Shown here: one piece after another, positions 17,130 to 44,167 of the stretch
Position numbering within the stretch: the stretch's first letter is position 1
How the letters are laid out: each line of letters begins with the position of its first letter
Origin: Rotaria socialis
Taxonomy: Eukaryota
NCBI GenBank assembly: GCA_905331295.1
Contig: CAJNYD010000249.1
Location: 1 to 44,851 of the forward strand
Length of the DNA stretch: 44,851 bases
Direction of reading: 5' to 3'
Notes under the pieces: model-generated
The model's database searches: none
What the model was told of the DNA's origin: nothing
Seen by the model: the letters and a program-made list of their open reading frames with translations, nothing else
Translations under genes and position numbers: made by a program

Positions 17130-20100
17130 TTAGCTAAAAGTAATCAGATAGGTTGGATAAGCAACACGATTTTCGTAAACGACGTAAACTTTACTGCCTT
17201 TTGTGTCGCCGGACACGCTGTTATATCGTCGGCCGTCAATGTTTTCATTTTTCTTCGGTGGCCGACGTAAGGTTCTGTCATACTGACAATCATACACATG
17301 CCCTGTCAAGACTTGAGCCAAGAAGACCTGACGCTTCCCGTTCGACAATAGATGCGCATACAAGTCGCACGAGTACGAAGCATTTTGTGCAAAATATGTG
17401 CCGATGCCCCACATGCCGCTTTCACAAAATGTCATGTCGAATCCATATTCGCCGAGGTAAATTTCACTAGGCGGCGCGTTTTTCGTCCCGTGGAAAAGTT
17501 CCATTTCGACCTGTAAATCCGGCATTGAATGCAGCTCGTTTCGAAGATTTCGATGACAAAATGCATAATGATTCCACATGCGTGGATTTTGAACGCGTTC
17601 CATTTTGTGAACTTCAATATTGGGTATCGTTTCCTTCATTCGGGTTTCGATACGCATGAAATTTGGATCGTTCCATGCCGATTTCAACTAATCGGCATTC
17701 TTCTTGTTGATCGATCCATTCGCTTGGCAGTCTTAAATCTTCATCATTGCCGATTTGCATTCTTAATATATTCTGAGTGTAGTCAAAGATTTTGAATTTG
17801 GCTTCTGCCACACCTCCCCGCAAACCTTTCAGTATCATCGAAAGTTGTTCAGTGCTTTCAGGTTCAAATTCGATTTGAATTCGCTGTTGATACCCAATTT
17901 CTGCGATTTTACTCTTGTGCTGATCGAGATTTGTATCCAGCTTGACCGAAACTGTCTCAGAAACTTTGACTTCCTCAATGGCTAAGCGAATTTTGTCTTC
18001 GGCTTCTTGTACAGATTGGTGACAAAGGCCAAACAGATTCCACTCGCCTCCGCCTATTTCTGATACGCAATAAAAAAGATCCAGCGGATTTTGGCTCATC
18101 ACCACTGGCGCCGTTCTTTCCTGTTGTTGAACTGGATGGCGAATAATGTCGCATTTTTTTCCCGTGTCCTTTCTGAGCTGATAGCCAACGACGAAACTAT
18201 TTTTCAGCGCAGCAGGATCTTCGATCACGATTTTCTTCTTATCTCGATTAAAATGAAGCTCATAGTCAACGAGAGTCGCACTCATTAAATTATCACATCT
18301 CAGTTTCACATTTTCAATGAAACATACTGCATGACAAGTGTCACAGGCGTCCTTCTTTCTAAAAATATTCCAAATAGTACTGTGAGGGACGTTGTTGGGT
18401 ACATTCGGTATCTCTGAATTTCGAAATCGTAGAAATGCGTTTTCGATCTGTCGTGTATCATCCTCATTGTACATTCTCTCACCAGACTTATCTTGCCAAC
18501 ACCATTTAACCGTGGATGGGGCCGCTTGACAGTTCATCATGTCGTCGTCGTCATTGTTCAAATGTGGAGTTTGGTGATCAACGCGAATCTCGTATTCAAA
18601 CGCAGTTGAAACTGCCTCGTCGACATCGATTAGAACGATGTTCCTCAACTTCGATCGCGGATAATTGGCGAAAAATTGTTTTATTGCCCGAACGACAACA
18701 TTCGCACAAACGACCAGTGGAAAACCCTTGATTTTCGAACCGATGGCCGGTAAAGCAACGCTTGAGCAACTTTCACTTTCGGCGACTTCTAAAGCTGACA
18801 AGACACTGGCAAATAGCAGCGGATGTTTATTTTGATAACCATCGCTGTAATGAGGACTTATTGCGTGAATAACACATTTGAATGGAAGATTTCCGGCCGT
18901 TGTTTTCACCGCTCGGCCAACAGGAATTGGTAAGTCGCCGTTGTTCGAAATCAATTCTTTGCATTCTTGATCCAATGCGGGCCCAGCTGCTTTCGCAATC
19001 GCTTTAGCAACACCGCCAGCGTGCTCCAAAGACCCATTTGCTCCGTTGACGATGGCGTCGACGTGTTCGACCTTGGAAATGTCGCCTATCTCGACGATTA
19101 TCGTCTGACCGCGACTATTTTGAAAAATGATTTTTACGAAATTGGTCTTTTCATCATTCGAATCAACGTTGATATAACGAATAACTGTATTTGTTTCTTC
19201 TTCCATCCTTAATGCTACTTTGTAATTGTTTGCACGCAAGAAATCGGACTCGACCAGTGCAAATCGTAAGCGACGCTCGACAACCTGCTCTTGCACACGT
19301 TTAATAATGTTGTCGATCTTTTCTTTAAGTTTTATAACGTGATCTAAAGGACCACGAAATATCAATACTTCACCACCTCTCGATTCGATGAAAACTTCTT
19401 GTGCTCTGGGCCCGTCGATTAGCGATTTTGTCTCTTCGTCGATGAATCGACGAATATTCTTTGGAATTCGAATGAATTTCGAACGGCGTTTCGGTCGCAC
19501 CTGCTGTTCGCTTGCCAAAGTGAGCATCGCTGTCTGAATCTCAGCGACGAGCATTTTCGATCGTGCCGAAATGATGATCGAATTCGGATCACGCTTCAAC
19601 TGGATATTCGCGTCCCATTCGCTTTCGAATTCTTTGAGCGACGGCGATTTTGTCACGATCAATCTTTGAAATATCATGTCAGACTCCCCATCAGATGGCG
19701 TCCAAACCAAGAATTCTCCGATAAGATTTTCGCATTGTTGGAACACGTTCGAAGTCGCATCTTCGTTGAACCCAACCACTGTTAGTGTATTTTCGGGCTG
19801 TGTTTCGAGTCGAACAGTCCTAGAGTAGTTTTTGAGCCAACCGACTGCTGAACAATCTTTCGAGTCGAGGAGATTTCTGAGATGCGCTCGAACCTTTCGC
19901 TCAATCTTTGTTGCAATGTACCAACTCGGACAACAAGGATACTGTCTCTCTTGTTCACACAAGTTTTCGAGAAATGTAACGACGGCATTTCGCGCATCAT
20001 TGACGCGGCTAATCGAACCAGTAAGTTTCAAATAAGAGTTTTTATCGTCTTGTTCGTCAGATTTGAAACGATCCAGTGAAAACGGCTGGATCCTGATGCC

Positions 20101-20984
20101 AAGCGTTTCCCCCAGTGTATTCAAATCACTTGAACCTTTCTTCCGTAGGTAAATGGTCATGGGTGTGGAAATCACGATTTGTTGCTCCGTTTGAACATGT
20201 TTGCTGAGAAAATTCTTCATTTCGAGCACGATCGTGTCGACATGTTCTCGAAATCCTTTCACTTGCACACACCAGGAACCTTTCTTCGGAAAAATTAAGA
20301 CATACACGTGGCAATTCTTCCTCGATTGAACAAAATCGTTAAAATAATTTCGAATATGATTTTGTCGATCACGATTCGTCCGAAAATTTTGTGTCTTTAG
20401 AATGAATGAAACTTCATCTTGTGTTAACAGGAAAGAGTCTGTAATCAACAAATAATTACGAAATTCATTGATGGCTTCCGACAACAACTCTGACGAGTCG
20501 CTGCACAACGTCACTTGCACGTGATTTCCGCCGCGTTTCACATTCGAAGGGAGGCCTTTGTCATCATGGTCAGATTCATTTTCGTCTTCATCACGCTCAC
20601 AAATCGGCTTTGCAATCACGATTTCAGCGTTCTTCACTATTTCACGATAAGAAATTCCTACGCGATATTTATTCAAACACGCGTTTGTTAAAGGTCCTTT
20701 GAATTTCAAGTTCAAATATTTCGCCAATGCTGCAGTAATATCAGCGGTCTGCTGATTAAGCGATGATTCTAGATAAGTTTTCATGGTTCGAGTTGATTGA
20801 GCTCGTCCATATAATTCCAATTTACCAGTAAGTATATTGACTCTCTCGATACCTGATTCTTCGCGAATTCTTTTGAGAATTCGTTCACCGAAAAACTGGA
20901 GGAAATTTTGTTGGGCATCAGTCAATTTAATGATTTCTGTTGATTTTCGATCAGCTGGATTGGGACCGATGGATTCGTTGTACA
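17130..20984 (-). CDS. PARP14/15-like mono-ADP-ribosyltransferase (KH-like repeats, Macro, WWE-like, PARP catalytic). One +1 frameshift near 17675; 5' end cut by a transposon
   Basis: Macro: GDIS..DAIVNGAN..HAGGVAKAI..VIHA..VALPAIG. WWE-like: KWCWQD..Y...IENAF. Catalytic: LFHGT, GTYFA, YVVYEN..AYPTYLITF, with no catalytic Glu. ORFs 17614-20985 and 17130-17687 overlap in different frames. Confidence 0.88.
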
Positions 20985-21167: not shown

Positions 21168-21573
21168 GGGTGTGGGTGTGGGTATGGATGTTGGGGTGGG
21201 GTGGCTGAAGGTGTTGTTTTCATTCTTATCGTTCACGACACCCACACCCACACCCTTTTCAGCGAAAGGTTTTTGTGATATAATTTGCTATGGCCTTAGG
21301 TTATTTAACCTCTGACGAAATACCTCCTATCGTGTATTTATTTAATTGTAAACGGTCCTGGGACAATTGACTCTGCAATTCTTGAAAATGAGTCAAANAC
21401 AAATAATTACGAAATTCATTGATGGCTTCCGACAACAACTCTGACGAGTCGCTGCACAACGTCACTTGCACGTGATTTCCGCCGCGTTTCACATTCGAAG
21501 GGTGTGGGTGTGGGGTGGGGTGGGTGTAAGTGTTGTTTTCATTCTTATCGTCCACGACACCCACACCCACACC
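21168..21573. repeat. Two near-identical telomeric hairpin patches (21168-21255, 21500-21573) bracketing copies of ~28473-28613 and ~20447-20550 around an N gap
   Basis: Both patches read (gggtgt)n...gtgttgttttcattcttatcgtYcacgac(acccac)n; the intervening segments match the stated loci nearly exactly. Confidence 0.8.
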
Positions 21574-21643: not shown

Positions 21644-24055
21644 AAGGATGGGCGCATAAGGACGCGAATCGGCCCGTTTTTATTTTGCCTTTGAAGACAT
21701 TGAAAACATGCACAGAGTCACTCAAAAAAAATGCGCTGCTTATTTCTACGTCGAAAATTAAACGTTCCATAAACATTTCATACACCAAATATATAGCGTG
21801 ACTTAATAGGGGATTTGTATAGAAATCCAAAATGAGAGCGCATATTATCGCAAAGAAAAAAATCTTCCAAAGGCTTCAAAAGCCATCTCATTCGATGGAG
21901 CTTGAAAAGCTGTATACAATGGTAATATTTCCAAATAAAAAAAAACGATGACTAACGTGTGAGCACGAGGTCAAGATTGTGGAAAATCCATCGAAATTCC
22001 TAAATGTCGTTTTTCTGACAGTATAATTGTATAGGATTAGTTTTCTGCTTCAAGATGGTTTATATCTCATTTGATGGCACTTGAAAAGGTGTACAAAATG
22101 GTGTTGTTTTTGGTCAAAAGCATTAGTGAGACTATCGAACACCTAGTTAAAAAGTGAATAATTATTATAGCCCTGCATTGATGGCAACCCGTTATACTGA
22201 TGTGACTTTTATGTACAGCATATTGATAACTTCACTGATTCCGTTTCTTTTTCTTCTTGCATTTCTTTCTTCTCATTTTGCATCTCCTGATCTTCTGCAA
22301 CGATATCAGTATCGGGTTCTATCAGCTTATGGAAGAAGTAGATTCAGGAAAACGATCAGACAGAGAAATTTACGCTAGGCACTTCATTCTCTTTAGTGTC
22401 CATTTTAATATATCGGTACATCAAGATGATCGATTTTATTTTGCATAGCTTTTCGCCGTAGATCAGACTATCCTTCACAGGGCTTCGCAAATAGAGTCGT
22501 TAGGATCGAGGTGCTTTCCGGAGTATGCAGCCACATATGTTCACAATAGTCGGAATCTACCTACCGCATACTTGTCACTACCATGATTGATTTGTACCAT
22601 GCACTGAAAAAATCGATAACGCCCTTCATGTGGCATTACAAAAGAAATAAGATCAATGTATCGATGAAATATACAAATGTACCACTGCATCTGGATTTAC
22701 TTCAGATGTGCGTGTCGTTCACCGCGTGAACACCACTGATGATAACTACGGGACCGCTCAAGACACTAGTGGTCACCGCATAAATGACAGTGGCGATGAG
22801 CACGGGGACGACAAGGTGCATGGACGCGTGGATATTTGCATGATTAACAAAATTGCGAATGTACAAAAGCACGAAATATATTCGATCTGTCGTCAATAGA
22901 TCCTTGAAGGCATGAAAAGCTCTCCAAATGTAGCTCGTTGTTTTACAACGAGCGCATTTGAATATATCTATGCCACATTAAAAATTTTAGATGGGCCGCA
23001 GCATTGCCAACAGGATATTTAACAGAAGACCGCCGTTTTTTAAACTATATTGCAATCGGTAAGGTTTATCACAAAACGAAACTAATGTGAAGCAACGAGT
23101 CTGAATGCCTTGCTAAAGTAAGCAAGCGTTCCAACAGTCTCTAATCTTTCCAGACCATACCCAAAAAGCATTCATTACTTCCTTTTTGGTAACCATACAT
23201 ACAGAAGGATGTAAACTGTTTTGCCCTAAGGAAACAGCCTCCTGAACTTATGCCCGAAATATAACATGCACAGTGTGACAATTCCACACAGCCTATCTCA
23301 ATCACCTTCCCTCCCATGTTACAATATCCTAGACAACTCAGTGGAGAAAATTTAGAGGCATTTTTCTGCACTATTGCCTCTTAAGGCTCACCATCACCCA
23401 CCCTTTTTCAACCTGAAAATATTACTATTTGTACAGCTTTCAAACTCTATTGAATGCGAAATAAACCATCATGAATCAGAAAGCTCATTCTTTACAAGGT
23501 TATTGGCAAAAAATCAAGATTTAAGGAATTTTCGTGGATTTCTCACAATATTGGAGTCCTGGTCACGCACTGGCCATCGTTTTTTCGATTTAGAAATATT
23601 ACCATTTTGTACAGCTTTTCAAGCTCTATCGAGTGAGATACAAACCATCTTGAAGCAAGTAACTAAGCTTATACAAGTATAGTGGAAGAAAACCTGGATT
23701 CTAGGTATTTTAGTTGGGTTTTTCACAATATTGACCCTATGATCACACTGGCCATCGTTTTTTTTTATTTGGAAATATTACCATTTTATACAGCTTTTCA
23801 AGCTCCATCGAATGAGATGGCTTTCGAAGCCTTTGGAAGATTTTTTCTTTCCGATAATATGCGCTCTCATTTTGGATTTCTATACAAATCCCCTATTAAG
23901 TCACGCTATATATTTGGTGTATGAAATGTTTAGGCAACGTTTAATTCTCGACGTAGAAATAATCAGCGCATTTTTTCGAGTGGCTCTGTGCATATTTTCA
24001 ATGTCTTCAAAGGCAAAACTAAAATGGGCCGATTCGCGTCTTTATGCGCCCCCTT
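21644..24055. mobile_element. Non-autonomous DNA transposon with long (~300-450 bp) TIRs
   Basis: 21644-21960 is the reverse complement of ~23740-24055 (gggcgcataaggacgcgaatcggccc / gggccgattcgcgtctttatgcgccc). No intact internal ORF recognised. Confidence 0.75.
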
Positions 24056-24515
24056 CGTTTATTTTTTGTGAAACACGACCTAAAGAGAATATTGAAGTAT
24101 ACAGGGTAGAAATTTGCCCCCCCTCACAAACCGTGACAGATGAATTTACTTATTAATGAAATAATAGTGTACTTAATTAATTAATAATTAATATGTCCCT
24201 AGAAAATCGCTGAAGACCCATCCTAGCCGGTGTCAGACGGCTTCTAAAGGCATCGCAGACCGTGAAAGACAAAGTTCCCGCGTGTCACAGACTGTGAAAG
24301 GCAGGTTCCGGGCGCGACATTCAATGTGGTCGATTTTTTATATAGAGTTAGTGAGTATATCTCACTAATATTTGATGACAATACATTATATATTTTTATG
24401 GCACCTTTAGTACTTAGATAAAATATGATGAGTCAATGGGTATCGAGGTTCATGTATAAAAACAAGGTCTGCATGAATGTTGAGAGCAACTTCATCGTGT
24501 TTCAGATTTTTAATC

Positions 24516-24939
24516 TCAGGGGGATTGCGCTAACAGCTTTTTTTCTTTCGAATTAATTATTGGCTTGTCATTGCCTGAGAAATTCGCTTGAGACTCAGGA
24601 CTGTCATTCATCTGGCTTGCTACTAAAGTATCATTTAAATTAGCAGAAGCCTGGTTAAGGTTGTTATCATCATCGGGAAGGTTTATGCGATTGATTACTT
24701 CGTCTCTTGTATCCAATAAACTTGGCTGCATCGGGTCGAAATCATTTGTCACCGTCGAAGGAACTTCAGCCAGTAGACCGACACTATGCTTGTCTTTCTC
24801 GTGCTGAGCTCTGCTAGCATTGGTGGGAAACGTCTTGGTGCACATGGAGCACCTAAAGAGATCCTGAGTTTCGACAACCGTATTTTGATTCTTTCCAATA
24901 TCTCTTGTGTCCGTCAGAGCAATAGCTCGCTTGTCCTCT
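24516..24939 (-). CDS. Exon with a C2H2 zinc finger and an acidic/Asn-rich linker
   Basis: Acceptor tttcttttag| at 24940; reads EDKRAI...FRCSMCTKTFPTNASRAQHEKDKH. Phase 2 matches the NYN exon donor. Confidence 0.6.
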
Positions 24940-27246
24940 CTAAAAAGAAATTAGGTTGACAGATTCCTTTGAATAGCTACTTTTTTCTGAACCCTCTTTA
25001 TGGATGTTTTACTGTGGATCTGGAACCTTTTCTTACAAAATGAAGTCTTACTTGTTCGTTTCTGAAAGTCTATGACATAAAATATCTGCAGGCACTAATA
25101 CATGCTAATCAAATTATATGTCGCACGTTCTTGTACAAAATTGTCCCCGATCAGAGATTGGGCACGTACAAAGAGGAATTCATTTTGATTAAAAGTTGTG
25201 CCTGAAACTTTTAATTAAGTAAAGTTGGCTCACGTTCACGTGTACTCAGTAGCAGTAGTAAGTACATTTGTACGTAGATAAGCGTCTGAATCTGGATGTG
25301 GCCGGCATATGAATATTGATGAACTAGATGAGTCATATAAGTATTTTTTCTCTCACTCATACGTCACGTCTGCAGATACAGGGAGTATGTCTGAGGATGC
25401 TAGCAGTATTCCTGGGATTGCTACTCACATTCCTCTAGTATTTCTGAATATGCTATTCGCGTTCTTGAGGATACTACTGGTATTCATAAGGATGCTACTT
25501 GGGCGTCTGAGTATGCATCTGGCATCCTAGAGTTGCAAAAAATCGTAAAATTCTCTAGAAAGTTGATTCGCGGAACAGTTCATGATTAGGAGAGCTGAAA
25601 TTGTCACCTAGGAAGTACAGATAAAAATAAAAAATTCAAGAAAACATTTCATCAAATAATATTTACTTGAATAGTCATAGTGGGAAAAGAGAAATAAACA
25701 AATAGCAACGATATTCGCGTACATTGGTGCTAAGTATCAGTACTGAAGTAAATAAAAATTTGAATTTCTCTTCATGGATTCCACTATTAAACGAGCAGTG
25801 CTAGTCCGCAGGATTCGCAAGACCCTAGTCTGAATTCACTATCGTATTCATTTTTTACCGCTACCTCTTTTCTACTTTGAGAATTGTTTCTAAAGTCACG
25901 CAGATACAAATCAGAGAGCGAATCGAACCGACTTTGTCTGGTTCGAGTTCGGTTCGGTTCATTTTCTAGCTCTCATTTTAGGTGTTATACAAAACCAGGA
26001 ATCGCAGTAAATTCCTCTTTATCATGTAGTTTTGGGATAAGAAAGCCCTACTCATTGCCTTTCAGCATGCTGATTAAACATGTTTGACATGACTTGGAGC
26101 AACTTTATTATTTTTAATAATAATTGAACGGAATTCGAAATATGATCTTATAATGAAACTGTGAAAGAGATTGTGCTGATGAAATTTCAATGTAGAAATG
26201 ACAAATCTAGTAGTCAATTGACGACATATTAAAATGAATCGCAGAATTGAACAACTTATTAGCATATTAATATATGATAACTACGGGATATGATTAAAGA
26301 GAAAATAGCAACAGGTTAACTACTTCACGAATGATAGTGTGTTGTTAATTAGATCAGCATGTGTTTGTTCTTTGAAGAAAATAATAACGAAGAAAAAATA
26401 TGAATTAGAGAATTAAACCGCTTATAAATGATTGATCCTTATGAACAGAATTAGTGTCATTGTGTTACGAGAAGACAGCTTTACACGGATATAAAACTAG
26501 GCGTGTGAAAAAATGATCCCACGCCGTTTTATCATTGTGCGCAGCAACACAATTAAAAAAACGATCGTTTAATCAATCACTTCTACGTTTGTATAAAGTC
26601 ACTAGTTTTTCTAAAATTAGTTCTCGTTCGATTCATTTCGACATTAATTATCAAGAAATGATTCGGATTCGGTTCGGATCGATTCTAACCGAACCGAACC
26701 GTTTCAGTTCGGTTCGTTTTCTCTCTCCGATACAAATATTTGTTTATAATATTGTTAATGACTTCTATATTGTAGAGCATCTCAATTATTCTAGTTTCGG
26801 TCGACATTTCCTGAAATGAACTTTAGCATGCAGCTCCTATTAGGGGTCACGATCGAATTAAACCTACATTTCAGTCTCTTAAAGAGTGTCTGACCTGCCT
26901 TCGACGAAAATTTTCACTTTCATCAAAAATAATCTTTATTTCGAGATCCTACAATTTCACCTTGAATCTCACCATGTCGCTAAAGGTACAGTCTAGGACA
27001 AAAGTGTAAGTGAAATTGATTTTTGAATATTTTTTTTTCAAATATTTTTTTCTGTAGTTTTCTTTCATATTATTAGGTGTAGGTTTGATTCAAATGGTTA
27101 TACAGATAGTATGAGGGCTTAGCTACATCATGTATTAAAGAACAACATTCTATCTCTTGATACATCTAAACAATTTAGTAAATTTAAATTTAAAATTTAA
27201 ATGTAATTTAACTTAAAATTTTCATAAGTTAAATTTTATTTAAATT

Positions 27247-27544
27247 AAAGGAGGGAGGCGAATAAGGCCACTTTCTCGCCCCCAATATTTTTGCATAAAA
27301 GTCGTATATTCGGAATCAGCATAAAATTCTGAATCGAATGGTGTAGTTTTCACAAGAATTTGTCGAAAAAACTTTTCAACATTCTTGAGGGGTCGTAGAG
27401 GCAAAAAATGCCAACAAAAAGAAGTCATTTTCCAGAAAATAAAAATACCTCATCTTGATCAGAATTTTATGCTGATTCCGAATATACGACTTTTATGCAA
27501 AAATATTGGGGGCGAGAAAATGGCCTTATTCGCCTCCCTCCTTT
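27247..27544. mobile_element. Palindromic MITE with ~85-bp TIRs
   Basis: aaaggagggaggcgaataaggcc... / ...ggccttattcgcctccctccttt. Confidence 0.8.
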
Positions 27545-27769
27545 CCGTATCAGAAAAATTTAAATTTATGTTAAATTCAAATTAGATTTCCTCCAATTTA
27601 AATTTTAATTAAATAAACTGTAAATTGACACCCCTATTAGGCAGCATATGCAAGTTCTATATTTCAGTCCCATAGACCTGTACTAACATGATTTATTACT
27701 GACTTAAGTAGTACGTATTCAGTTTTACTAGACATAAAAACTTTGTAAACAGCATTTTTCTAAACATAC

Positions 27770-28319
27770 CTCTTTGCATTTTTGTTTTCTTTCTTGAACT
27801 TAGCACGTGAAGCTTCGCTAACTCTTGTGTTATTGATCGCTTTACGACATCTCTCGACGAATATATGAAAAGGATAAGCTTCGTTAGCTGTCTTCAAGAG
27901 CTTCTCGTTCGCTAGTGGATAGTGGATGAGAATGATATAATGTGGAGAGGAGAAACGAAGCTCGTTTACATGGCTAATGAAGTCGATGTCTCCAGTTAAA
28001 AGCACTATTGTAGCTGGGCTCTCTTGTTTTTCTTTGAATTGTTGCAGATCCTTCTTAATGCGTTCGTCTGCTTCTCCCCTCTTTATATTTAGTATATCTA
28101 TAATATTCACATTGGCAAGTTGAAGGTCTATTTGATGCTGTCGTGATAGACAGCTGGTGTTGCAGTAAGCTCTGAAGTCACTCCCCACTAGCTTTCGGTC
28201 TTCAATTAGCCGTTTCCGTAACTCCATGACAATATCAAAGGCCGTTTCTCCAGCAGGAATGGCCACAGTCTCGATATCCCAATATACACTTACTGGCCCG
28301 GTGGGTTGATCGACAGGTC
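27770..28319 (-). CDS. NYN (PIN-like) ribonuclease domain exon, MARF1/limkain-b1 type
   Basis: VYWDIE, KRGEAD and IVLLTGDIDF with acidic residues retained; acceptor ttctcttacag| and donor AG|gtatgt. Confidence 0.85.
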
Positions 28320-29240: not shown

Positions 29241-29500
29241 TAGGGGTATGACAGTTCAGTTTTAGTTCTATTCAAAAGAACTGTTCAGACAGTACACAGG
29301 ATCTGATCTGAACTGTTTGAACAGATCAGATCAGATCAGATCAAAAGAACTGTTCGAGCTGATCAGATCAGATCTAAGAACTGTTAGGATCTACACTGGG
29401 ATGATGTCTGTATCGGTATAGGCATCTCTTATGGGATCTGTTCGAACAGTTCTTTCGCTCATTTGATCTGAACTTAGATCTGAGAACTGCCATACCCCTA
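29241..29500. mobile_element. hAT-like MITE
   Basis: TIR taggggtatgacagttc / gaactgccataccccta; degenerate 8-bp TSD gccatcac / ttcatcac; internal gatca and gaactgtt repeats. Confidence 0.75.
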
Positions 29501-32126: not shown

Positions 32127-32344
32127 CTAAAATTTCAAAATCCACTAATTTAGGAACAATCCTTTTCTCAGGCGTGTCACAAAGTTTCTTTAACTTTGGG
32201 AAGCCGGAAGAGAAACAATATGATATCAATCTCTATGATATAGCACATTGTGTAGCTTTCGTTGCAACACGAAATGTAACTTTTGATTACAAAAATCATA
32301 TCCAAATCCGTCCATGTAGACTAGAGAAATCCACATGAACTCTA

Positions 32345-33360
32345 TTAAGCCACCCCCGTCTAATAAAATTAACTTTTGGCGAACTTGTCAATTTTGTGAT
32401 TTTTAGATAGTTAAATAGAACTGAGTGTTTACTCTCGATTGCACGATAAGTTTTTGGTTGTATGATAAAATTTAAGGAAACTACATAGGTTTTTCAGAAA
32501 CCACATAAAGAAAAAAAGAAAGTTTGTTTCTAAAAAAATTAATTTGGAAACTTTTCCTTTGACCTTTTATAATGATCGGACTTAATATCGTATAGAGCCA
32601 AGTGTAACAGGTGAATAAAACACTTTAGAAAGTCCAGAATTGAATGAAACTACTATACATGGATCGATGTTTAAACATAAATTTTGTTTCATAAAATTAT
32701 CAACCATGATGGTTATAACGCATCTTGAAGTGTTTAAGATAATATGAACATATTACTTCTATGTGATACATATCAATTTAGATGATATTATAAATACTGT
32801 TCAAACAGATGATTTTTATTGATATTTTCATAGACGTAATAGATTCACGAAACAACGAAACAAACTCTATTGTAAATCTTTATATGCTTTCATCTGATGT
32901 ATCCTAATCGTTGATATGTTGGAAATTATCTCTGTAATCTTTTTAGTTCAATTTAAAAAGCAAAAACTCTTTATTTTGTGTTTTTCTCAAAAGAGGACTT
33001 TTGATTTTTATGTTTTGTGCGTCCCAGATTTCTCAGTCATTTCAAACGTTAGAAAGTTCAGGTTGGTTTTAAAATTCAAAGTACGAGGCGATTGAAAAAT
33101 AGGACCCTGTTACGTTGTACAGCTACCTCTTGGCTACATTTAAAAACTAATATAAACTTCCTAAAATTAGAAATGGCTGAGAAATCTGGGACGTATGGAA
33201 ACCTTGATTTTCACCGATAATTGTAAGCTAACTCTTGTACACTCAATGCATCGACCTGTAATTTTTACTGCAATATACCACACTGGAAATACATCTTTCC
33301 TGAAAATTTCAACGAAATCAGATGCTTAGGGGTCAATTTTCTTTTAGATGGGGACCTTAA
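32345..33360. mobile_element. Probable non-autonomous TIR element with TTAA flanks
   Basis: ttaagccacccccgtctaataaaatt / aattttcttttagatggggaccttaa imperfect termini. Confidence 0.45.
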
Positions 33361-33575
33361 GTAGAGGTGACACTCACTTTCGTTTTATTTTCTGGAAGGA
33401 AAGTTGAGATTTTTCATATTGTTAGAAATGCACATGATATGTATTATCGAGAATAGGCACAATAAAGCAATCGTTTTAATATGAGAAACGTTAATTGATC
33501 TTTCTTGAAGGTGTGGGTGTGAGTTGTGTATTAAGGAATCTTATCCATATTTGCACCTGCGCCTAATCCACACCC

Positions 33576-36510
33576 AAATTCCGTCCCTCGACAAATTGTG
33601 TTTAGTGTTTTGATTTATTCGTTTTATATATTTTATGAACATACTTTTAGAAATCAACATAAAAAATTGAGTATCCGACACTAATTTTTAACTCATTCAA
33701 ATATAATGTTATTCATTTTCTCCTGTATTTTCAAACGACTCCTGCTTATATGTCGCTAGTATACCGTATTTATGTAACTAGTTTTTTATCACAAGATAAA
33801 ATGGCAAGTCCTATATTCCATTCGAAGCAGCTTTGAAAGAGCTACAAATCTATGCTTTAACATTTTTTTATACGTTTCTTAAGCTGAGAAACAAACATTT
33901 TTTTGTATTACTCATTATCGAGAAAGATTTTTGTTTTTTCTTATACATCAAATGAATCGTTCAAATCTCGTTCATAAACGCACTTATCGTTGTTTCTTTT
34001 GTTCTTTTAATGCAATCTACAATTTATCTGCCTTATCTTAACCTTTTGAAACCCTTTTCATTTAATATGTTTTATTCGTAAGTTGCGCTTTCAGTAAAGC
34101 AAATTACAAGTTAATTGTTCCAGCCTATTTAGTTTTATTGTGCTGTATTGGGTCCATTCATTCAGCGTGTTTCTGATGCCGAAAAGAAGCAAACATTCGG
34201 CCAGGTTGACCAAGACTGCAAAGTTCCATTGGTCTATGAAAAATATTGCCATATCTCATCATAACAAGGATGAAGTTTTAAAATGAATTCAAAGGAAAAT
34301 ATTGGAGATATTTTCGAACTGTGCGTTAGTAAGTGCAATTTTAAAACATTAAGTACATTGGTTTACATGATTTTTAAATATTTTGATTTCATTTGGCGTG
34401 ATATTGATAAATTTATGTCTAACATGGGTGCTATGCGATGTATTACTGCTAATAAATGGGCCGAGATCTTTATCAATGGTGATTTTGATATGCTCATGAA
34501 AGACGAATGTGGAGGGAAGCGAAGCGATGCATTTTTCGATACGTATCCAGAAATCGAAATCAATGCAAAATTGTTCGTAGTTGATGGTGGCGCTCAAAGG
34601 TAAGGAAATTCTAACGCAATTGATCTTGCTCATTACGTTGATGCATCATACTATGAATTAACCAACGCAAAGAAGTGTCGAAATCAATTAATTAGATCAG
34701 AAAAAAATGTGCCGTTTGAATATGAGACGATGGGAGTATAGGTTTAATTTGAATACAAAAGGCCCTATGATAGAGGACGTGATCGACCTGATGTATTGGC
34801 TTATCGTGACCAATTTTTCAAACATTTTTATCCAAAAAGCAATAATACTATTTGGTCGGTTCCGATGATCCTTCCAATTGCTATATTCAAACTCAAAACC
34901 CAAAGTTGTTGATATGTATATGAAAAGGCTTACCTTGATCCTATTGCAACTGTTTTCTTTCCTGTTTCTGTGAAGGTCATGATGAAACAACATTTTGATC
35001 TGGTAAGGTGTCGGCTAAAATATGGATATCAGATGAAATTAAGTCTTTTTTCTCTAAAGGACGCGATTCTTCTTTTATGGTTTCAGACTTCATCGTATGC
35101 CATCCTTCTGGACGATTGTTTTGCTTAAATGGTGAAGAATGGTAAAAAAAGTGACTACCAAATAACCAGATTTGTTACAAAACGATTGCATTAATTATAT
35201 GGATCGAACAGCAACAGCAGCAATCAATGTTGGTAGGAATTCCAAATTTTGATAATGAAACAATATTATGTCAATTTCAGCGTTTATTCGAAATGTTGCA
35301 GTTTAAAACGGAATATCAAGGTCATTACGGCGATATTTTAGTGGATAATGAGAGAACGCATATCACGTGCAACTACACTATAAATAATTTTCGAAAAAAT
35401 GTAGGTAGTAGATATCCTGTGGAAGTTATTGAAGATTACGGTGATAATAAAGTGAAGCAGACAATTGACTAGTATTTTTGATCAGATGTAAATAGGAATA
35501 AAAGCAAAGGACTATTATTATTAGCAAAAGAATTGCGTGTTGCAATACTAAAGAAATGTCTGTTATCACAACTTCGTGAATTGCTTACTCCACACCCAAC
35601 ATTTAAACTAGTAAGTGACCTATTATTAATTGAGCAATCAAGAAAATACTTCATCGAAATTAAACTGTACAAGAAACTTTTTCGTCGTTTTTGGTATGCT
35701 TGTGAAGCATACCGGCAAGGAAAGTCATACGTTGATGCATTAAAGCTATTCTTTAGTAGCTCTTGCATAGAACAAATTATGCCACATACAAGAATTTCGA
35801 ATACCAATATTCACACTCATACAAATTAAGTAGTTATCTGATGTTGTTCTTTTTTTTTGTTTCCTTATTCAACATCGAAATTTCAATAAATGAAAAAACG
35901 TTTCATGAACACAGAGCAACACCTCTAAGTACGCTACTCAACTATAGATGCAATCACTCCCAATTATTATAGGTTCTTTACAAATGAATCCTGAAATCGC
36001 AACTTACGAATGAAATTTATCAAAATGAAAAGGTTTCCAGAAGGTTAAGATAAGGCAGATAAATTGTAGATTGCATTAAAAGAACAAAAAAAAACAACGA
36101 TATGTGCGTTTATGGGCGAGATTTAAACGAATAATTTAATGTAAAAGAAAAAATAAATTCTCTCTATAATGAGTAATACAAAAAAAAGTTTTTTTTTCTC
36201 AGCTTAAGTAAAGTATAAAATAACGTTAATGCCTACGTTTGTAGCTCTTTCAAAGCTGCTTCGAATGGAATATAGGACTTGCCATTTTATCTTGTGATAA
36301 AAAACTAGTTCCATAAATACGGTATACTAGCGACATCTAAGCATTGTCGTTTGAAAGACAGGAGAAAATGAAAAAAATTATATTTGAATGAGTTAAAAAT
36401 TAGTGTCGGATACTCAATTTTTATGCTGATTTCGAAAGTCGTGTTCATAAAATCTATAGAACGAATAAAACAAAACACTAAACACAATTCGTCGAGGGAT
36501 GGAATTTTCG
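33576..36510 (+). mobile_element. Degenerate DDE DNA transposon (probably IS630-Tc1-mariner group) with ~520-bp TIRs
   Basis: 33576-34098 is the reverse complement of ~35991-36507. Internal broken transposase (GGKR.DAFFD.YPEIE, HDETTF, FSKGR.SSFMVSDF, FDNETIL.QFQRLF, LVDNERTH) with frameshifts and stops; right end followed by TA. Confidence 0.75.
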
Positions 36511-36993
36511 TACAGCTACAAATTATGAAAGTTTTCGTCTTTTTTTTTAATATATTTTCTTACACAGTTTGATGAGCTCTATCGAAACATATATAAATCA
36601 TTCGGAAAAAATCTGCTCTAATTTTGAATTTCTGGCACCTTATAATTTAATTTTTTCATAATTGAAGAACTTCACAATCACTGGAGAAGTTCTACAACGG
36701 TATGGAAACAGATATGTTCCCATATGTGCTCGCTCGCCTTATTCGGTGTCGATGGTAACTCGCATAAAATAAAGAGAATTCTGCACAACTGGATGGTGTT
36801 ATTCTCAATTGCCGTACACAATGAGACCGAACGAATATTTAGATAGTCCTTTCATTCAGACTGATTAAGAGAGCTGCTTGAAAGAAGAGACGGTTAAATT
36901 CTACTTCTACGAAAGACATATTGTTCATCGTTCTCTCAGAGAACACCAGTGACATTGCTTGTTCTATTAGTTTTCATCGAATACGAAGCTTAC

Positions 36994-37700
36994 CGTGGCT
37001 TATCGCTTTTGTTACTATTGGGATCATATCAATATTTGGATCCGATGAAAATAAACGACATAGAGCTTTGGCACAATCAGGTTCAATTTTCTTCAAATAA
37101 AAACATTCATAGATATTTGAAAACAAATGTTAGTTGATGTAATGCGCTGACCTGACCATCATGGAATAAATTCAATAAATGCTCCGCTTTAAAAAATGGT
37201 AATGTTTGACTACGAAAGAAAATAATTATTTAAATTTAATGCACCATGAATGAAAAGATTTTTATCATTGAGAGCACAATTATTACATACCGTGTGACCC
37301 AATCGATATTAAAAACATCTGAAACATCTTTTTTGCCATCTTGCAAAATCCAAGGAATGACTTCATTGGGATTTTGAGATTGAGAAGACAGACGAGCGAT
37401 TCCTTGAAATCGTCCACTTTTATGAACAGAAATATATAAAATTACATTTCGGTGATCCTAGATAAAATAAAGATAAATATTTCATTATTGTTTTCTTGAA
37501 AGGATTATTGACTTTGAAAGCTCGATTTAATTTGTGTTTAGTGACTTCCGATGTTGCCCATACACCCTTTAAATATTTAAATAATTTTAACTACATAATA
37601 AACATAAAGCATACATTGATTTTAGCCAATTCTACATTTTTTTCATCAGGAGTTCTCAGTACAAAATAAGCAGCATCGTAGAATATATGTTGAAGTAAAT
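36994..37700 (-). CDS. YTHDC1-like YTH (m6A-reader fold) domain in five exons (37700-37615, 37566-37513, 37457-37291, 37209-37152, 37090-36994)
   Basis: Spliced product FYDAAYFVLRTPDEKNVELAKIN|GVWATSEVTKHKLNRAFK|DHRNVILYISVHKSGRFQGIARLSS..IPWIL..VFNIDWVTR|QTLPFFKAEHLLNLFHDGQ|KIEPDCAKALCRLF aligns by eye with the YTHDC1 YTH. Absent from the ORF track. Confidence 0.88.
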
Positions 37701-38345
37701 CTGTTAGTATTCAAATAAAAATAGTTCGAAAAACCTGTGACAAACGGAAATGATTGAAAGTGATGTAGAACATAAATATAACTCGTTTCATTTGAGTTTC
37801 TGTTTGGTATTTTTGATTGATAGTAACTGTTTATTATCCTTTTCTTTTGAGTACATTATCCGATTCATCTCAAAGAAGTAATTCTGAAATCTCAGAAAGT
37901 GACTGGGTGTTCTTGCCAATCGTTTTTTTTAGATAAATCTCGACATATCATATATATATATATATATTCTAGTGAGCTATGAATATACTAAAAAGAGTTC
38001 ATGAGTTGCTCTCAACGCTACAGAGATAGATTTTTACAGTATTATATTGATGAATAATGTCGAGTTCTTTCTGAAATATGGATAGTCAAATTATGATGTA
38101 ATGCTTTCAGAGAGACTGTTTTACTATGAGTAACTTATGCTTAAAGTTTGATATCCTTTTGTTGTGCATAGATTAGGGATTCATTATAAGAGTGGGTCCT
38201 CCTCATCAACATACTCGACATCTTTAACTCCACGTTGTAACCAGTCGATTCCAACAAAACTGATATCATCATGTCCGAAACTTATGCAAACTTTCAAAGT
38301 CAAATTCGAAAATGAATTTCCATCAAAGGTATGAATCCTACTTTA

Positions 38346-38737
38346 GTGGGAAAGGAACAATATCGGAAGGTAAAAATATCGAAAGTAAAAACGTCGGAGA
38401 TAAAAGCCAAGCATCGCAATGAGAATCCTATAGTCCGTGTCCGTGGAGTCTATGCAGTTTCGCCAATTGTATATTTGTTGTTGGCGAACTTCCTCATGAA
38501 ATTCGTCAATTGGCGAATTACTAGTGTGACATTCGACAATAAATAATATATTTTCGTATTCCTTGGTTCACCCATTGGCGAAAACTACAATTGGCAAAAC
38601 GATGAATTGGCGGTAAGATATTACCCCGTGTCAGTGTGAGGGGACTTCCACTTTCATTCACTGCCATTTTCAGTGTTTCTTTTATTCGATATTTTTATCT
38701 TCGATATTTTTACTCTTCGACGTTCTGCTTTTAACCA
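38346..38737. mobile_element. Probable small non-autonomous element(s) with subterminal repeats
   Basis: aaaaatatcgaaag repeats at the left mirror ttcgatattttt repeats at the right; internal ttggcga repeats. Confidence 0.4.
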
Positions 38738-39686
38738 TGGTAGAGTCAATCAAGGAAACTATAAGGCCAGAAATTTCTCCGATTGAAATGGGCAAAAACT
38801 TAAAATTTCTATTGACATAATGGAAATTAATAATCGAATTTCAATCGATTTAAATTTGAAATCTATAATCATGATTTATTCAAAATGGATTCCCAGGTCA
38901 ATGATTCTGAAGAACGGATACTATAGGAACTGATCGAAAAGATGCAGAAAAAGTAAATAAATAACTGTTGTTAAGTTTATAAGGTTTTGCAATTTTGAAG
39001 AATAGCAATCCCTCTAATGTCATTGAAAGATCTACCAGTCAATAGAATCCAATAATCCAATCTATTGTAATTTGCTAAATTCTGCCAATCTATTATTATT
39101 CCTTTACTTGACCCACTCTAGTATATTTTTTTAAGTTATTGTCTTCAATCTATAACTACCTTTGAGTTTGTTTGAATTTATCAGTACTTGCCAATCGACA
39201 CTAATGTATTCTTATTCCATAATCGATTATACTCTGCTATATGCTCTCAATCAATTTATCTGTTATACCTGCAAAGTTAACGTCTCGCTCAATATTCGCA
39301 CGCTGACGTGAGTCTTAATTGTTTTATTATTTTTCTGGTTTCCAATTCATGAAAAATTGCTAAGGTGCCATGAAAAGAAAACCTGACAAAAATGGTACAC
39401 CTTCTATAGATATTGTTTCAATTGATTTACAGATTTCAATTGGTTCTAATCGAGTTTTCAGTCTAAAACGACAGTTATTTTGAAATAATGAAATTTTAAA
39501 AATAATCATCAAAAAGATTGCTGCTGTTTTTGAGACTCTTTTCAGTGAAAAAAGTTTATCATATACTTGCAATTTATTACTTTCATAAAATTTTTTTCTT
39601 TACCTGTAGTACGCGGAAGTTTTCCATCTAAACATTCAAGAAAATTATATTTGCTGTCACTTAATTCTAGTAATAATTTTTGTTAC

Positions 39687-39884
39687 ATGGAGTCGGATGA
39701 AGAAACTTGTCGCATTTTGGCTTTCCGCACTCATTCCCATCACGACATTTTTGTTTACGACCACGTGGATGATTGGAAATACATTCATATTTGTCACATT
39801 CACGTCCATCATCACAAGCACTCCATCCCTCTGGATGTTTGAACGGGCAATCAAATTTGTAACATCGGATACCGCTGAGACATT
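39687..39884 (-). CDS. Exon with three tandem CCCH zinc fingers (Nab2/ZC3H14-like spacing)
   Basis: CLSGIRCYKFDCPFKH, CDDGRECDKYECISNH and CRDGNECGKPKCDKFLH (C-x5-C-x4-C-x3/4-H); bounded by ccaag| and |gtaaca. Confidence 0.75.
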
Positions 39885-40828
39885 CTTGGATAGCAATTGC
39901 CAATATAAAATATCATGACAGAAGATTCAGATTGAAAAAATTTTGCAATCAATAATTGCACAACATCGATTATTTATGATTAAAAGGTTGGGAACGTTTT
40001 GTGTGCATTTTCGACACAATTACAGGATATTACCCAACTAATCATAGAATCTCGGCACATGTCAAGGGAAAAAACAAATAAATTGACCTCTCGTGATTTT
40101 CAGTGATTCCTATTCCTGAAAATCCATTGTTAAGTGTGCATAACACATTGTCAGGAATCATAGAAAATGTTCAGAAATCAAGAAAAACTATGAGAAATCG
40201 ATAGAGTTTAAGAGTAGTTAGTCAGTGTATGGAGCATTATGGGGAAAAGAGAATTACTGAAAGTAATCAGCAGTCAATAGAGATCATGTGTTTACTTTTA
40301 AATGTATATTAGAAGAACTTCTGTGATATGAAATGCTTCCTTGTAATTTTCGATAGGTTCTAATGACTTCTTGTGACCCTCCGTGGGCTAAAGTTAGTTT
40401 TCAGTCGTTATTCGCATTTTAAACACTTTTATGGCGATTGCTAGTGATTTCCAATCACTTCTGATGATTTCTGACAAGAAACCTGTTGTTCCCAGTTGAC
40501 CATTGCACATCAGGAGTGGTACATTTGCTTTACTCTTTCAAAAAGTAAATAACGCGATTCAAATAACATATTTACTAGTTAATTTAGCGAAAGTAAAATA
40601 AGTAATAGCTAGTTACTTTTGTCAAAGTGAATATGATTATTAATGAATGTTATTTATCCATAACTATATTTACTCTTACTAAAGCAAATAGTAAATAGTT
40701 TGTTTATATATATACTAGTAAATAGAAACTGAAGTCTCAACCTTGGCGCACACTTTGACGCCTCACTCCCCTAAAACAGAGGAGGCGCTTTAGTTAATGA
40801 ATCGTTGCGTAATCTGGAACTTGAATCA

Positions 40829-40964
40829 CAATCTAAATAAAAATCGTTTTCTTGGAAACCCACAATAAAAGGTTTCCAAGATCAGTCCGGATACCCTTTT
40901 GGGTATAAAAAAGCTGGAAACCTTTTTTTGTGGGTTTCCAAGAAAACGATTTTTATTTAGAGTG
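40829..40964. mobile_element. Small palindromic MITE
   Basis: ~50-bp TIR ctaaataaaaatcgttttcttggaaacccaca / tgtgggtttccaagaaaacgatttttatttag. Confidence 0.75.
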
Positions 40965-41357
40965 CAGTGCATTTACATCAAAATTTACCCAGTTTTCAGG
41001 ATCATGTTTCAGCGAAAATCTGAAAATATTGTTCTGTAGATTACAGCTGGGGTCGCAAAATCCTAAGAGCCGCCTCATTGGCTGAAAAAGAACTTAAGTT
41101 AAGTTTTGTGAAAAATATAGGACCTAACACAAGATCATCCTGGAAAACTTTTACGCTTAGACATAATCGAAGACATCGGGGTCTTCTACTAGAGCTACGA
41201 CAGTTCCATATTGGTTCCGATCTTCGGAACTGCCACACAAGTTCTTTGATCGGAACTGATCTGTTGAAACAGTTCATTGATCGGAGCTGATCTGCTGGAA
41301 CAGTTCTTTGGTCGAAACTGATCTGCTCTTGAGGTTGTGAGTATTGCTGTGGCTGTG

Positions 41358-41882
41358 CTCTGAAAAAAATAAAGGAGGTTTGCAGAACCCTCTGAAAAGG
41401 TTCTGTAGATTTCCAAAATGCTCCGAATGCGCCCAAAGTCTCAAAAAAAGGATACAAATGTGTACAGAACCTTTTGGAGGTTCAGCGTTTTACCCAATCG
41501 CAGAACCATCTCTTACTGAACCTTTTTTAAGTTCAGTACAGCAAAAAGAGGTTCTGTGAAAAAATACGAAACCTTGAAGGTTCTGTACAAAATTATCAAC
41601 TGTTTTTACGTAACCCTAATGGTTCCATACTGAACCCTACTCATTTTGTACAGAACCTTCAAGGTTTCATATTTTTTTACGGAACCTTTTTTGCTGTACA
41701 GAACCGAAAAAAGGTTCGGTAAGAGATGGTTCTGTGATCGGGTAAAACGCAGAAACTCCAAAAGGTTCTGTACAAATTTTTATACTTTTTTTTTCGAGAC
41801 TTTGGACACATTTGAAGCATTTTGGAAATCTACAGAACCTTTTCGGAGGGTTCTGCAGGCCTCCTTTATTTTTTTCAGAGTG
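41358..41882. mobile_element. MITE with ~230-bp TIRs
   Basis: ctctgaaaaaaataaaggagg... / ...cctcctttatttttttcagagtg; explains the mirror-image ORFs in the track. Confidence 0.8.
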
Positions 41883-43231
41883 GGTGTGGGTGTGGGTGTG
41901 AGTGTGACTCTGGCTCTGGCTATCGCTGTGTCTGGATGTAGAGAAGTGGACACAGTTCCGGACCAAGAACTGTTCGGGTTGACACAGTTCCCGGGTAGGA
42001 ACTGTTCGGAGAATCTGGTTCGTGGGCAGGAACTGTTCTGAGGATCTGGTTCCCGACAGAGAACTGTGTATTGACTACAGTTCATGTAAAGGAACGGTGT
42101 GTTGGGTACAGTTCTTCGAAAAGATTCGGCTCAAAGAACCGAGAGCTGTGGTAGGTCTATCTTCTACTGTGGATGAGAGGTGGTTAGTAGAAATAGTGAT
42201 CCATATAAATGTCAGCTTCCTAATTTCCTTAGTTTGTTAATATGCAATATTGCTATTTTCATGACTGCGGACTAGGGATGTACTAAGCATAAGTTCAGTC
42301 ACTCAAATTCTCAGGTATGGTATGATTTGTCTAGACTTGAATAGAATTGGAGCTGGATTAGACTGAATCGGACTTTTTTGAATTAGCTATACCTTTCACA
42401 AAGATTCCGTCAGATTCAATAGTTTTTGTTGGTTCCTTATATATATATATACATTACTTCTTGTCGTTTACGGCAGGATAAATCGTGGAATTATCAAAGT
42501 ATTATTCTAGCTCAAAGTTCATTCTACTGAACACAGTATATACCATTATATTTCAATAGTGGGAATCAGATAGAAGCTTAGCTGCATCCGGACAGAAACC
42601 TTCCAGAACCAATGAGTTCACAACGAGAGAAGGGCAGAAATATCTTGGATTTCGGTAGAAATCTAGTTGAAAAATGTGATATTCGAAAAGCTTCAACACA
42701 CTTTCGGAAATTAGGTAGTTTTATGACTGCTACAGCAATTTTGATAGAGATAGGTCTTTAAGGACCTTTTTTTATGAATACTTTACTGATTACTCATTAT
42801 ACGAACTGGATTCACTTATTGGGTAGGAAATGGCTCCTGCCGTTCATTATTTTGTAAGTGGGTGCTAGCACACTTTTAGAAGTGCATATTGCGATTCACT
42901 TGCGAAAGAGGACAGAAGCATTGTGTTTTCCGGCTAGATTTCCCACAAAATCGAGGCTGTTTTCGTCGCCTTCGAGTTCAAAATCCATCGGTTCAGGGAG
43001 GCTTGCATCGGGAGTCCTGCTTCCACGAATTGGGGATCTTTCCTGCTGTTTCTGGCGGGAAGTATTATATGAGGAACCGACAGTTATTTAAAAGGAAACG
43101 ACGACGTTTTTCGTAGATTTCCATCAGATCTTGCAAGTAGAATCATCGACCTGCGTTCGACTTCTTTTGTCTCATGACCGAGATAAGTCAATGGAATGGC
43201 AAAGAATAGCTGCAATTTATTAGAATCCTAC

Positions 43232-44167
43232 CTATTGGTTTGATTGAAGATATGGGTTTGGTTGCAAAGTCATCAAGAAGAAATGGCGATTCAATTTCTT
43301 CCAGTTGAATAATATAAAGATCTGCACCTTGCTTGAGAAAGCCCGTAACTTTCAATTGTCTTGCAGGTGGAAGTAGTATTTCAGCTTCTCTCTGAAAGGT
43401 AGAATAGTTCTGGATATCTTTGCCGCTATGACATGCTATTGCAAACATAGTTCTCGGACCTTTTTCTCCCAAAAATGCTTCACTTTGCAGTGCATTGAGT
43501 GTGGTTGTAGAAGAGCTAAATGCCCACCAAAATAATATTTTGCCTTCCGGATATTCGTTTCTTATGTCTTTTGGAACTCCGCGGTAAACTGTTTTAGTAC
43601 TTGATGGAATGTTTGCTAGTGCAGTAAGAATCAATCGTAGATATAGAAGCCAAGGTTCCAGTTCTTGCAGATTCTTTGATCGTAGCTTCTGATTTAAAGT
43701 GTAATAAAGACTCTCTTCTCGAACTTTCGACTCCATTGTATAGAGTATGATTGCGGCTACTTCATCCACAGATTCAAAACACATTGGGAGATCATTGTAC
43801 TTTTTTTTTGCTTCGTTGACCATATTTTTCACACCTGGCACGCAGAAAGCGATGGGTTCTACAGCTTCTTCAATTGTAACAAGAGCCTTTTCCTTACAAC
43901 TTTGAAATAGATTTGCCACGCGGGCAGTTTCCTCTTCCGTATTCGGAAGAGGAACTCTGCTCCATGCTCCGCTCCATGCTCCGCCCCATGCTCCGCCCCA
44001 TGCTCCGCCCCATGCTCCGCCCCATGCTCCGCCCCATGCTCCGCCCCATGCTCCGCCCCATGCTCCGCCCCATGCTCCGCCGCCTGTTTCCCCTGGATCG
44101 TCCTTAAATCTTGAATGGCTCACCCAATTCGCCCAGAGCTCCTTCAGAGAATTCATTGGATCTGTTT
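43232..44167 (-). CDS. R-S-E class NAD+:arginine ADP-ribosyltransferase exon with an N-terminal GGAW repeat (ORF 43188-44156 if unspliced)
   Basis: [26 protein letters not shown] and QREAEILL (E-x-E); acceptor tttcag| at 44168 and donor G|gtagga at 43231. Confidence 0.88.
43962..44081. repeat. 12-bp minisatellite x10 (ccatgctccgcc) encoding (GGAW)n
   Basis: Near-perfect tandem copies, in frame within the ART ORF. Confidence 0.95.

Follow-up and report, generated by a model that had tools for sequence, protein, structure and literature searches.

A window of 44,851 nucleotides (nt) from the bdelloid rotifer Rotaria socialis (assembly GCA_905331295.1, contig CAJNYD010000249.1, positions 1 to 44,851 of the forward strand) carries on its minus strand a series of exons for RNA-binding, nuclease and ADP-ribosyltransferase (ART) domains. 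We lean, with a confidence only a little above even, towards one intron-rich bdelloid gene built of swappable phase-1 exon blocks, whose product would, after binding RNA, either cut it or ADP-ribosylate bound partners and so act in defence against viral or transposon RNA. This gene's copy in the window carries a PARP frameshift and is probably a composite of two deletion haplotypes.

Exon organization of the locus

Joining 18 minus-strand exons of the locus by their coordinates (Table 1) gives a single frame of 2,263 amino acids (aa), compared with about 2,420 aa if the PARP domain were intact, and roughly 6.8 kb of coding sequence is open except for one shift. Up to that frameshift, the domain order in the one frame is ART-CCCH3-YTH-RRM2-NYN-C2H2-KH array-Macro-(WWE)-PARP. 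Of the introns, sixteen have GT-AG ends and the seventeenth, 24575>20984, has GC-AG ends. Module junctions are in phase 1 in eight of nine cases, the NYN-to-C2H2 junction being in phase 2. In-frame chaining by itself is weak evidence for a real gene, since splice sites are open to choice; the chain rises above chance because homologous proteins match across exon borders. The closest named proteins are models from R. socialis and R. magnacalcarata (92-100% identity in the RRM, NYN, C2H2 and PARP14-like modules), which marks the DNA of the locus as bdelloid.

An initial annotation of the window had proposed eight minus-strand segments, and their coordinates, AG/GT ends and phases agree with the sequence. 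Their internal structure needed revision, however: the YTH segment 37700-36994 resolves into five exons, the RRM1-RRM2 segment 32126-30342 into six (with introns of 48-81 nt and one of 807 nt), and two small linker exons, 39313-39269 and 28669-28541, are doubtful. These two have no match among any of the fetched homologous proteins, the second is left out by every fetched Rotaria model, and omitting both preserves the frame. Three features are new relative to that annotation: the C2H2 exon ends in a GC donor (24575), one base shifts the frame near 17675, ahead of the PARP domain, and a scaffold join is marked by a single N at 21398.

Table 1 Positions of the exons, domains and repeat elements at the Rotaria locus.
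Feature	Position	Strand	Remarks
ART exon	43232-44167	-	Likely start Met at 44156; GGAW tandem repeat 43931-44105; R-S-ExE-type ART domain; Pfam ART 1e-14
CCCH exon, three fingers C-x5-C-x4-C-x3/4-H	39687-39884	-	From sequence; 56% to A. steineri P0014/P0055, same position; weak Pfam match, 0.03
Possible 15-codon linker exon, doubtful	39269-39313	-	In frame, phase 1/1
YTH domain, YTHDC1-derived	36994-37700	-	Exons 37700-37615, 37566-37513, 37457-37291, 37209-37152, 37090-36994
RRM1, FUS/EWS/TAF15-type, three exons	31684-32126	-	98-100% to Rotaria models
RRM2, FUS/EWS/TAF15-type, three exons	30342-30876	-	Structure matches and homologous Rotaria models
Possible 43-codon linker exon, doubtful	28541-28669	-	In frame, phase 1/1
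NYN exon, MARF1-type nuclease domain	27770-28319	-	Pfam 3e-8; MARF1 NYN E 2e-20
C2H2 finger and acidic linker exon	24575-24939	-	GC donor at 24575; contig of run X11 and models P0005, P0007, P0008, P0032
PARP14-like exon: KH array, one Macro, probable WWE and KH	17617-20984	-	Frame closes in short tail past frameshift
Mono-ART PARP domain (H-Y-V)	17130-17675	-	Out of frame here, in frame in other Rotaria models; stop 17132-17130
Long terminal inverted repeat element, YTH-RRM intron	33576-36507		Inserted at edge of inverted telomere-repeat pair 33510-33576
Long terminal inverted repeat element, C2H2-PARP14 intron	21650-24051		Inverted repeats
Scaffold join, single N at 21398	21168-21573		Copies of 28473-28614 and 20448-20551 and two related inverted (TGTGGG)n pairs flank N
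Inverted (TGTGGG)n pairs	16428-16486, 17003-17044, 21168-21255, 21500-21573, 33510-33576		G-arm/C-arm

Evidence for a single transcript

The initial annotation had described the C2H2-to-PARP link as undemonstrated, with no strong donor; this link is now supported. In sequencing run X11, which was guessed, not recorded, to be RNA, a 266-nt contig (record 13, depth 3.2) matches 24752-24575 with letters 1-178 and 20984-20897 with letters 179-266, with one mismatch per side. It skips the 3,590-nt GC-AG intron in frame, joining the C2H2 exon to the PARP14-like exon, and the same junction is found in four Rotaria models (Table 1). The close X11 matches listed fall in exons or at the 3' end of the gene, and the 3' part of the gene appears to be expressed and spliced. 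Read-through at the GC donor would end translation at 24516, and the donor might act as a switch between short and long isoforms.

The remaining junctions are inferred from homologous gene models, which were found in searches limited to 2,000 aa or 2,522 aa. At the 5' end, model P0014 of Adineta steineri gives a single uninterrupted alignment to aa 78-801, at 53% over 776 columns, and the ART-CCCH-YTH-RRM modules have 56-67% identity to A. steineri in the same order. The top six of the 18 matches to the ART exon are A. steineri models, all with YTH, and the CCCH exon has a close match only in P0014 and P0055 among all fetched proteins. Further along, the YTH-to-RRM1 junction is found in P0042 and four Adineta models, the direct RRM2-to-NYN junction in P0033, P0034 and P0039, and the NYN-to-C2H2 junction in P0005 and P0007. 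The Logan protein P0003 (976 aa, intron-free) carries RRM-RRM-NYN-C2H2 in order as one open reading frame (ORF); it is likely to come from spliced RNA, since the longest Logan contig is only 3,144 nt for these 976 aa. With the C2H2-PARP14 junction in a probable RNA contig and the other real module junctions matched by homologous models, a single gene instead of a cluster appears better supported than the initial annotation held.

Several observations weigh against this reading. The RNA junction 24575>20984 comes from one shallow contig of a run only guessed to be RNA, and the other junctions are without RNA support. No contig of run X19 (same species label, RNA guessed) or of runs X11, X9 and X16 passes over an ART, CCCH, YTH, RRM or NYN junction in 24400-43900, a result that was weighed neither way; in this interval X11 gave only YTH pieces of a relative, and X9 and X16 covered introns and resemble DNA. 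The giant modular protein first proposed is recovered in parts: the 5' half of its architecture is present in A. steineri and other parts in Rotaria models, but the entire chain occurs in no fetched protein (the longest has 1,728 aa), and no fetched Rotaria model joins ART or CCCH to YTH. Apart from P0003, the homologous models are automated predictions, and several are probably the same animals assembled twice, so that they are not independent. For the assemblies of PMC7943196, the gene models were predicted by BRAKER.

Two or more adjacent genes might also produce these patterns, namely an ART-CCCH-YTH-RRM gene like those of Adineta beside a distinct NYN-C2H2-PARP14-like gene, with phases alike through a common exon toolkit. 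Such an arrangement would agree with the Adineta homologs, which end after the RRMs with KH or LRR, with several Rotaria models that end at TLPDSSEYL past RRM2 or begin inside the PARP14-like exon, and with the different N-terminus of the PARP14-like relative P0031. AATAAA or ATTAAA also lies behind most read-through stops, but these poly(A)-like hexamers are near background at 0.93 per 400 nt. Moreover, the NYN and PARP14-like exons start at phase-1 acceptors, P0003 runs from the RRMs to C2H2 in one ORF, and X11 splices C2H2 to PARP14. Separate genes are unlikely, and a single gene is preferred.

Assignment of the modules

In addition to ART and NYN (Table 1), a Pfam scan of the locus identified Macro (8e-30) and PARP (2e-15), and YTH reached E 8e-40 when scored on P0041, which is 80% identical to the window YTH. 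C2H2 (0.02) and CCCH (zf-CCCH_tandem, the sole CCCH match) were weak.

In the ART exon, VYRG, FSSST and REAE align with Vis, so that the R, S-x-S and E-x-E catalytic motifs are kept. Among solved structures, ARTs of the arginine type come closest (best E 2e-5), and identity to A. steineri ART-YTH models is 64-67%. The 12-nt tandem repeat ahead of the ART domain encodes about nine GGAW units (8 WG dipeptides); it is not found in the Adineta homologs and may have expanded neutrally. Repeats of the WG/GW kind are reminiscent of Argonaute hooks.

With P0041 as the query, the YTH domain relates to YTHDC1 at E 4e-43, compared with 1e-25 for CPSF30-L/CPSF4-type YTH. Both tryptophans of the window YTH align with those of YTHDC1, and we take them to be the aromatic cage of the N6-methyladenosine (m6A) pocket; the loop is two residues shorter. 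In a tree of 15 rows, the fused-type YTHs from the two genera, Rotaria and Adineta, group together as a long-branched clade (100/100), with the canonical Rotaria YTHDC1, P0116, outside it; the fused type branches from bdelloid YTHDC1.

All nine structure matches of RRM1 and RRM2 are to FUS, TAF15 or EWS, not to the N-terminal RRMs of PARP14. For the NYN domain, both structure matches are to MARF1, and the three Asp positions align. Pfam scans detected no LOTUS repeats.

In the PARP14-like tail, a predicted 166-aa model (predicted local distance difference test, pLDDT, 81-91 in the first domain and 43-54 in the second) matches tandem KH domains with a best E of 1e-3, whereas the predicted fold of a 1,122-aa stretch was unusable (mean pLDDT 36). 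The KH array stands before Macro as it does in PARP14, with an Atlas lead for KH_PARP14 at 0.85. The Macro domain is present in a single copy, and its best match is PARP14 (macro 1), with SKIKG here versus SGVFG in PARP14. Matches to WWE in the PARP14-like exon are weak in Pfam (E 0.048 and 0.058; Atlas lead 0.84). In the PARP domain, H-Y-V motifs of the mono-ART type align with solved enzymes.

Loss of the PARP reading frame

The one-base frameshift near 17675 lies ahead of the PARP domain and puts it out of frame. It is carried by gap-free contigs of two DNA runs, X1 and X5, from two studies, and is thus not an assembly error; in neither run nor in the window is the C-terminal mono-ART domain in frame as it is in PARP14. 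A hidden intron was rejected by eye as the cause, as no GT...AG fits at 17660-17700. Among 14 Rotaria models that reach this point, eight are shifted (two of them the window's own) and six are intact, in both species. The copy in the window cannot make an active C-terminal PARP.

Other signs of decay accompany the frameshift and likewise count against the preferred reading. The fourth residue of the NYN motif is changed from N to T (DIET in the window versus DIEN in all five homologs covering the motif), nine aa of the window YTH are deleted relative to P0041 and P0042, and the Macro motif is altered as described above.

Probable haplotype structure and telomere repeats

The single N at 21398 is bordered by copies, 142 nt and 104 nt long, of the two segments given in Table 1. 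Next to each copy lies an inverted (TGTGGG)n pair; both pairs have the same spacer, and TTATTA stands as a direct repeat on their outer flanks. The interval is probably made of two deletion haplotype arms placed in tandem, their deletions reaching to inverted telomere repeats. The first arm (28472-21399) would retain NYN and C2H2 and lack the PARP14 acceptor and its first 433 nt, and the second (21397-20552) would retain the acceptor and lack NYN and C2H2. Both inferred arms give open frames, of 1,159 and 1,958 aa. Contigs of X1 break at 28473 and those of X5 at 28502, which fits the two-arm reading, as a fork there would require such breaks; X5 is continuous through 20551. The depths of X5 contigs (9 over NYN, 20 over C2H2 and 37-42 over PARP14) give a hint of a haplotype without NYN-C2H2, with X1 ambiguous and depth an unreliable measure here.

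Five inverted (TGTGGG)n pairs are present in the window, all with the G-arm first; no pair of opposite polarity was seen, and none arose in 30 shuffles. These inverted GGGTGT repeats match the bdelloid telomere motif, which has replaced our first reading of them as a miniature inverted-repeat transposable element; the TTATTA direct repeat makes a small transposon possible. For A. vaga, PMC13564844 reports telomeric repeats at deletion breakpoints. The larger inverted-repeat elements at 33576-36507 and 41358-41880 are placed at or in (TGTGGG)n arms.

Variation of domain blocks

Domain blocks appear to vary between copies and between species, a feature that the initial annotation did not describe. 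The Rotaria models include YTH-RRM2-PARP14 (P0042), RRM2-PARP14 (P0043), RRM2-NYN-PARP14 with PARP intact (P0039) and RRM2-part NYN-C2H2-PARP14 (P0005 and P0007). In P0146 and P0211 from R. magnacalcarata and P0216 from R. socialis, a different ART together with TPR is joined to the same RRM exons (98-100% identity); this ART-TPR has no match in the window. Near accession numbers and agreeing contig sizes suggest that the ART-TPR-RRM models share contigs with PARP14-like models. Against block swapping, ART-TPR is unfused to RRMs in P0210, P0213 and P0214, and the ART-TPR-RRM fusion may be a prediction error. Within R. socialis, YTH copies differ by 20% and NYN copies by 7%, and the RRMs are 98-100% identical, a mosaic that is expected from block exchange.

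The Adineta models comprise ART-YTH-RRMn-KH, ART-YTH-RRM-LRR, ART-RRM-KH, ART-RRM-NHL and caspase-kinase-YTH-RRM. The last of these layouts is seen in P0061, an A. steineri model in which the same derived YTH is placed with caspase-like and kinase domains and an RRM; a signalling module here takes the place of the ART. Among NYN relatives the fusion partner is NHL or PARG; P0004/P0010, on a 14.6-kb contig, combine an NYN relative with a microbial-type PARG, an ADP-ribose eraser. The PARP14-like relative P0031 (from ENA, 37% identical) has an N-terminal CCCH and an intact PARP, its CCCH-KH-Macro-WWE-PARP order being a hybrid of the ZAP and PARP14 layouts. When 60 of 150 listed ART-family matches were scanned, mostly the longer ones, LRR was found in 34 and NHL in 4, and YTH, RRM and NYN in none. 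A metagenome scan with the YTH alignment confirmed none of 594 pattern matches, and one with the ART alignment yielded six loci with a distant ART only and no other module.

Such variation could also be mutational debris and not a selected repertoire, if break-and-rejoin repair in a fragile region shuffled and deleted exons and left a neutral, decaying chimera. The frameshift in several samples, the motif losses and the transposon insertions are compatible with decay, as is the one-sided polarity of the five inverted telomere-repeat pairs, with none in the shuffles. The order ART-CCCH-YTH-RRM is, however, maintained across two bdelloid genera at the identities given above, the coding sequence is open but for one shift, PARP is intact in six of the 14 models, and the 3' part appears expressed and spliced. 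Neutral decay is rather improbable.

Proposed function

If the blocks form one gene, as we prefer, its CCCH, RRM and KH domains would hold single-stranded RNA, and the YTHDC1-derived domain would read the m6A state of that RNA. The NYN domain would cleave captured RNA, the R-S-E-x-E ART would modify arginine on RNA-bound proteins, and PARP, Macro and WWE would write and read ADP-ribose as in PARP14. As intron phases match, a block could be dropped or exchanged with the frame kept; deletions would arise when breaks are repaired at telomere-repeat scars, and populations would then carry different domain sets. A defence role is suggested by the resemblance to PARP14, ZAP-KHNYN and MARF1 and by the variability of the blocks. 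In bdelloids, Argonaute and RNA-dependent RNA polymerase are expanded (PMC7943196).

A more elaborate version is quite doubtful. It proposes an m6A-gated machine for RNA ADP-ribosylation and cleavage, in which YTH would distinguish marked RNA from unmarked and aim the N-terminal ART at the RNA itself, all in one polypeptide, and a combinatorial, cross-species repertoire of exon cassettes, generated by break repair, that would provide immune diversity without sex.

In general, FET-type RRMs and YTHDC1 take part in nuclear RNA processing, and their presence would suit one fused gene for stress or housekeeping RNA control (damaged RNA, or stalled ribonucleoproteins after desiccation or radiation) instead of immunity. 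This role would also accord with the over-expression of many PARP copies by A. vaga after radiation and rehydration (PMC10809525), but it is improbable, as swapped blocks, the occurrence of null alleles and the mostly LRR, NHL and TPR partners of the ART family resemble conflict genes more than housekeeping genes, and a canonical YTHDC1 (P0116) is separately present.

Should a single transcript be confirmed, one protein would unite activities that vertebrates divide among ZAP, KHNYN/MARF1-type nucleases, PARP14 and YTH readers. It would also bring an m6A-reader fold and a toxin-type ART together; literature searches found no such pairing and, with most subscription papers and supplements outside their scope, returned no published description of an ART-YTH fusion or of such a bdelloid gene. 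The link between m6A reading and ADP-ribosylation would be testable on a 500-600-aa ART-YTH-RRM unit. Close Rotaria copies appear to differ in which domain blocks they have and which are swapped, and their breakpoints fall at telomere-repeat scars; this is relevant to the upkeep of defence-gene diversity in asexual bdelloids.

Neighbouring sequences

Three further minus-strand features were noted in the window. Fragmented ORFs at 13636-16178 resemble by eye a reverse transcriptase element of the Penelope type; they contain internal duplications and an N at 15811, and Pfam gave no reverse transcriptase match. A FLYWCH-MULE transposase remnant with short introns lies at 2363-4042, and a GDSL/SGNH lipase-like ORF (Pfam 6e-15) lies outside the locus at 10278-11072.

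Relationship to described systems

ZAP/PARP13 with KHNYN/N4BP1 carries out antiviral RNA decay in vertebrates as separate proteins. The locus shares with this pathway CCCH sensing, KH domains, NYN cutting and WWE/PARP, and the KH folds of N4BP1 and KHNYN are among its fold matches. The solved NYN relatives found for the locus, however, are MARF1 only, and the ZAP-KHNYN pathway is not known to include a YTH or an arginine-type ART. The CCCH fingers of the locus, unlike those of ZAP/PARP13, are not directly with WWE-PARP, as about 1,600 aa of other domains lie between.

CCCH fingers followed by YTH are also found in CPSF30-L and Toxoplasma CPSF4 (structures 5zuu and 7ng2). The YTH of the locus is from YTHDC1 and not from the CPSF30 clade, and it has enzymes attached; the shared layout appears to be a convergent architecture. 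Like MARF1, an RNase of NYN-RRM-LOTUS order, the locus has a MARF1-type NYN adjoining two RRMs, but these are of another type and precede the NYN, LOTUS has no match, and one conserved Asn is Thr.

The ART belongs with R-S-E arginine ARTs such as Vis and HopU1, its R, S-x-S and E-x-E motifs aligning with Vis. CmdT, an ART described in PMC11618068, modifies adenine N6 in single-stranded RNA in antiviral defence; in contrast to such enzymes, the ART of the locus is host-encoded and N-terminal in an RNA-binding fusion. Closest in the 5' half are the automated A. steineri models P0011-P0016, which are collinear with it at 56-67% identity per module but have more RRMs and a KH or LRR end, and have no NYN, C2H2 or PARP14-like tail.

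According to PMC10499325, the domains of PARP14 include three RRMs and eight KHs, and nucleic acids are among its targets. The locus resembles PARP14 in having RRMs upstream of a KH array, Macro, a probable WWE and a mono-ART domain. It differs in its one Macro domain, without the GVF aromatic, where PARP14 has three, in its FUS/TAF15-type RRMs, in the NYN and C2H2 between RRM and KH, in the ART-CCCH-YTH in front and in the frameshifted PARP. The locus resembles PARP14 or ZAP-KHNYN in logic, yet by its domains it belongs to neither.

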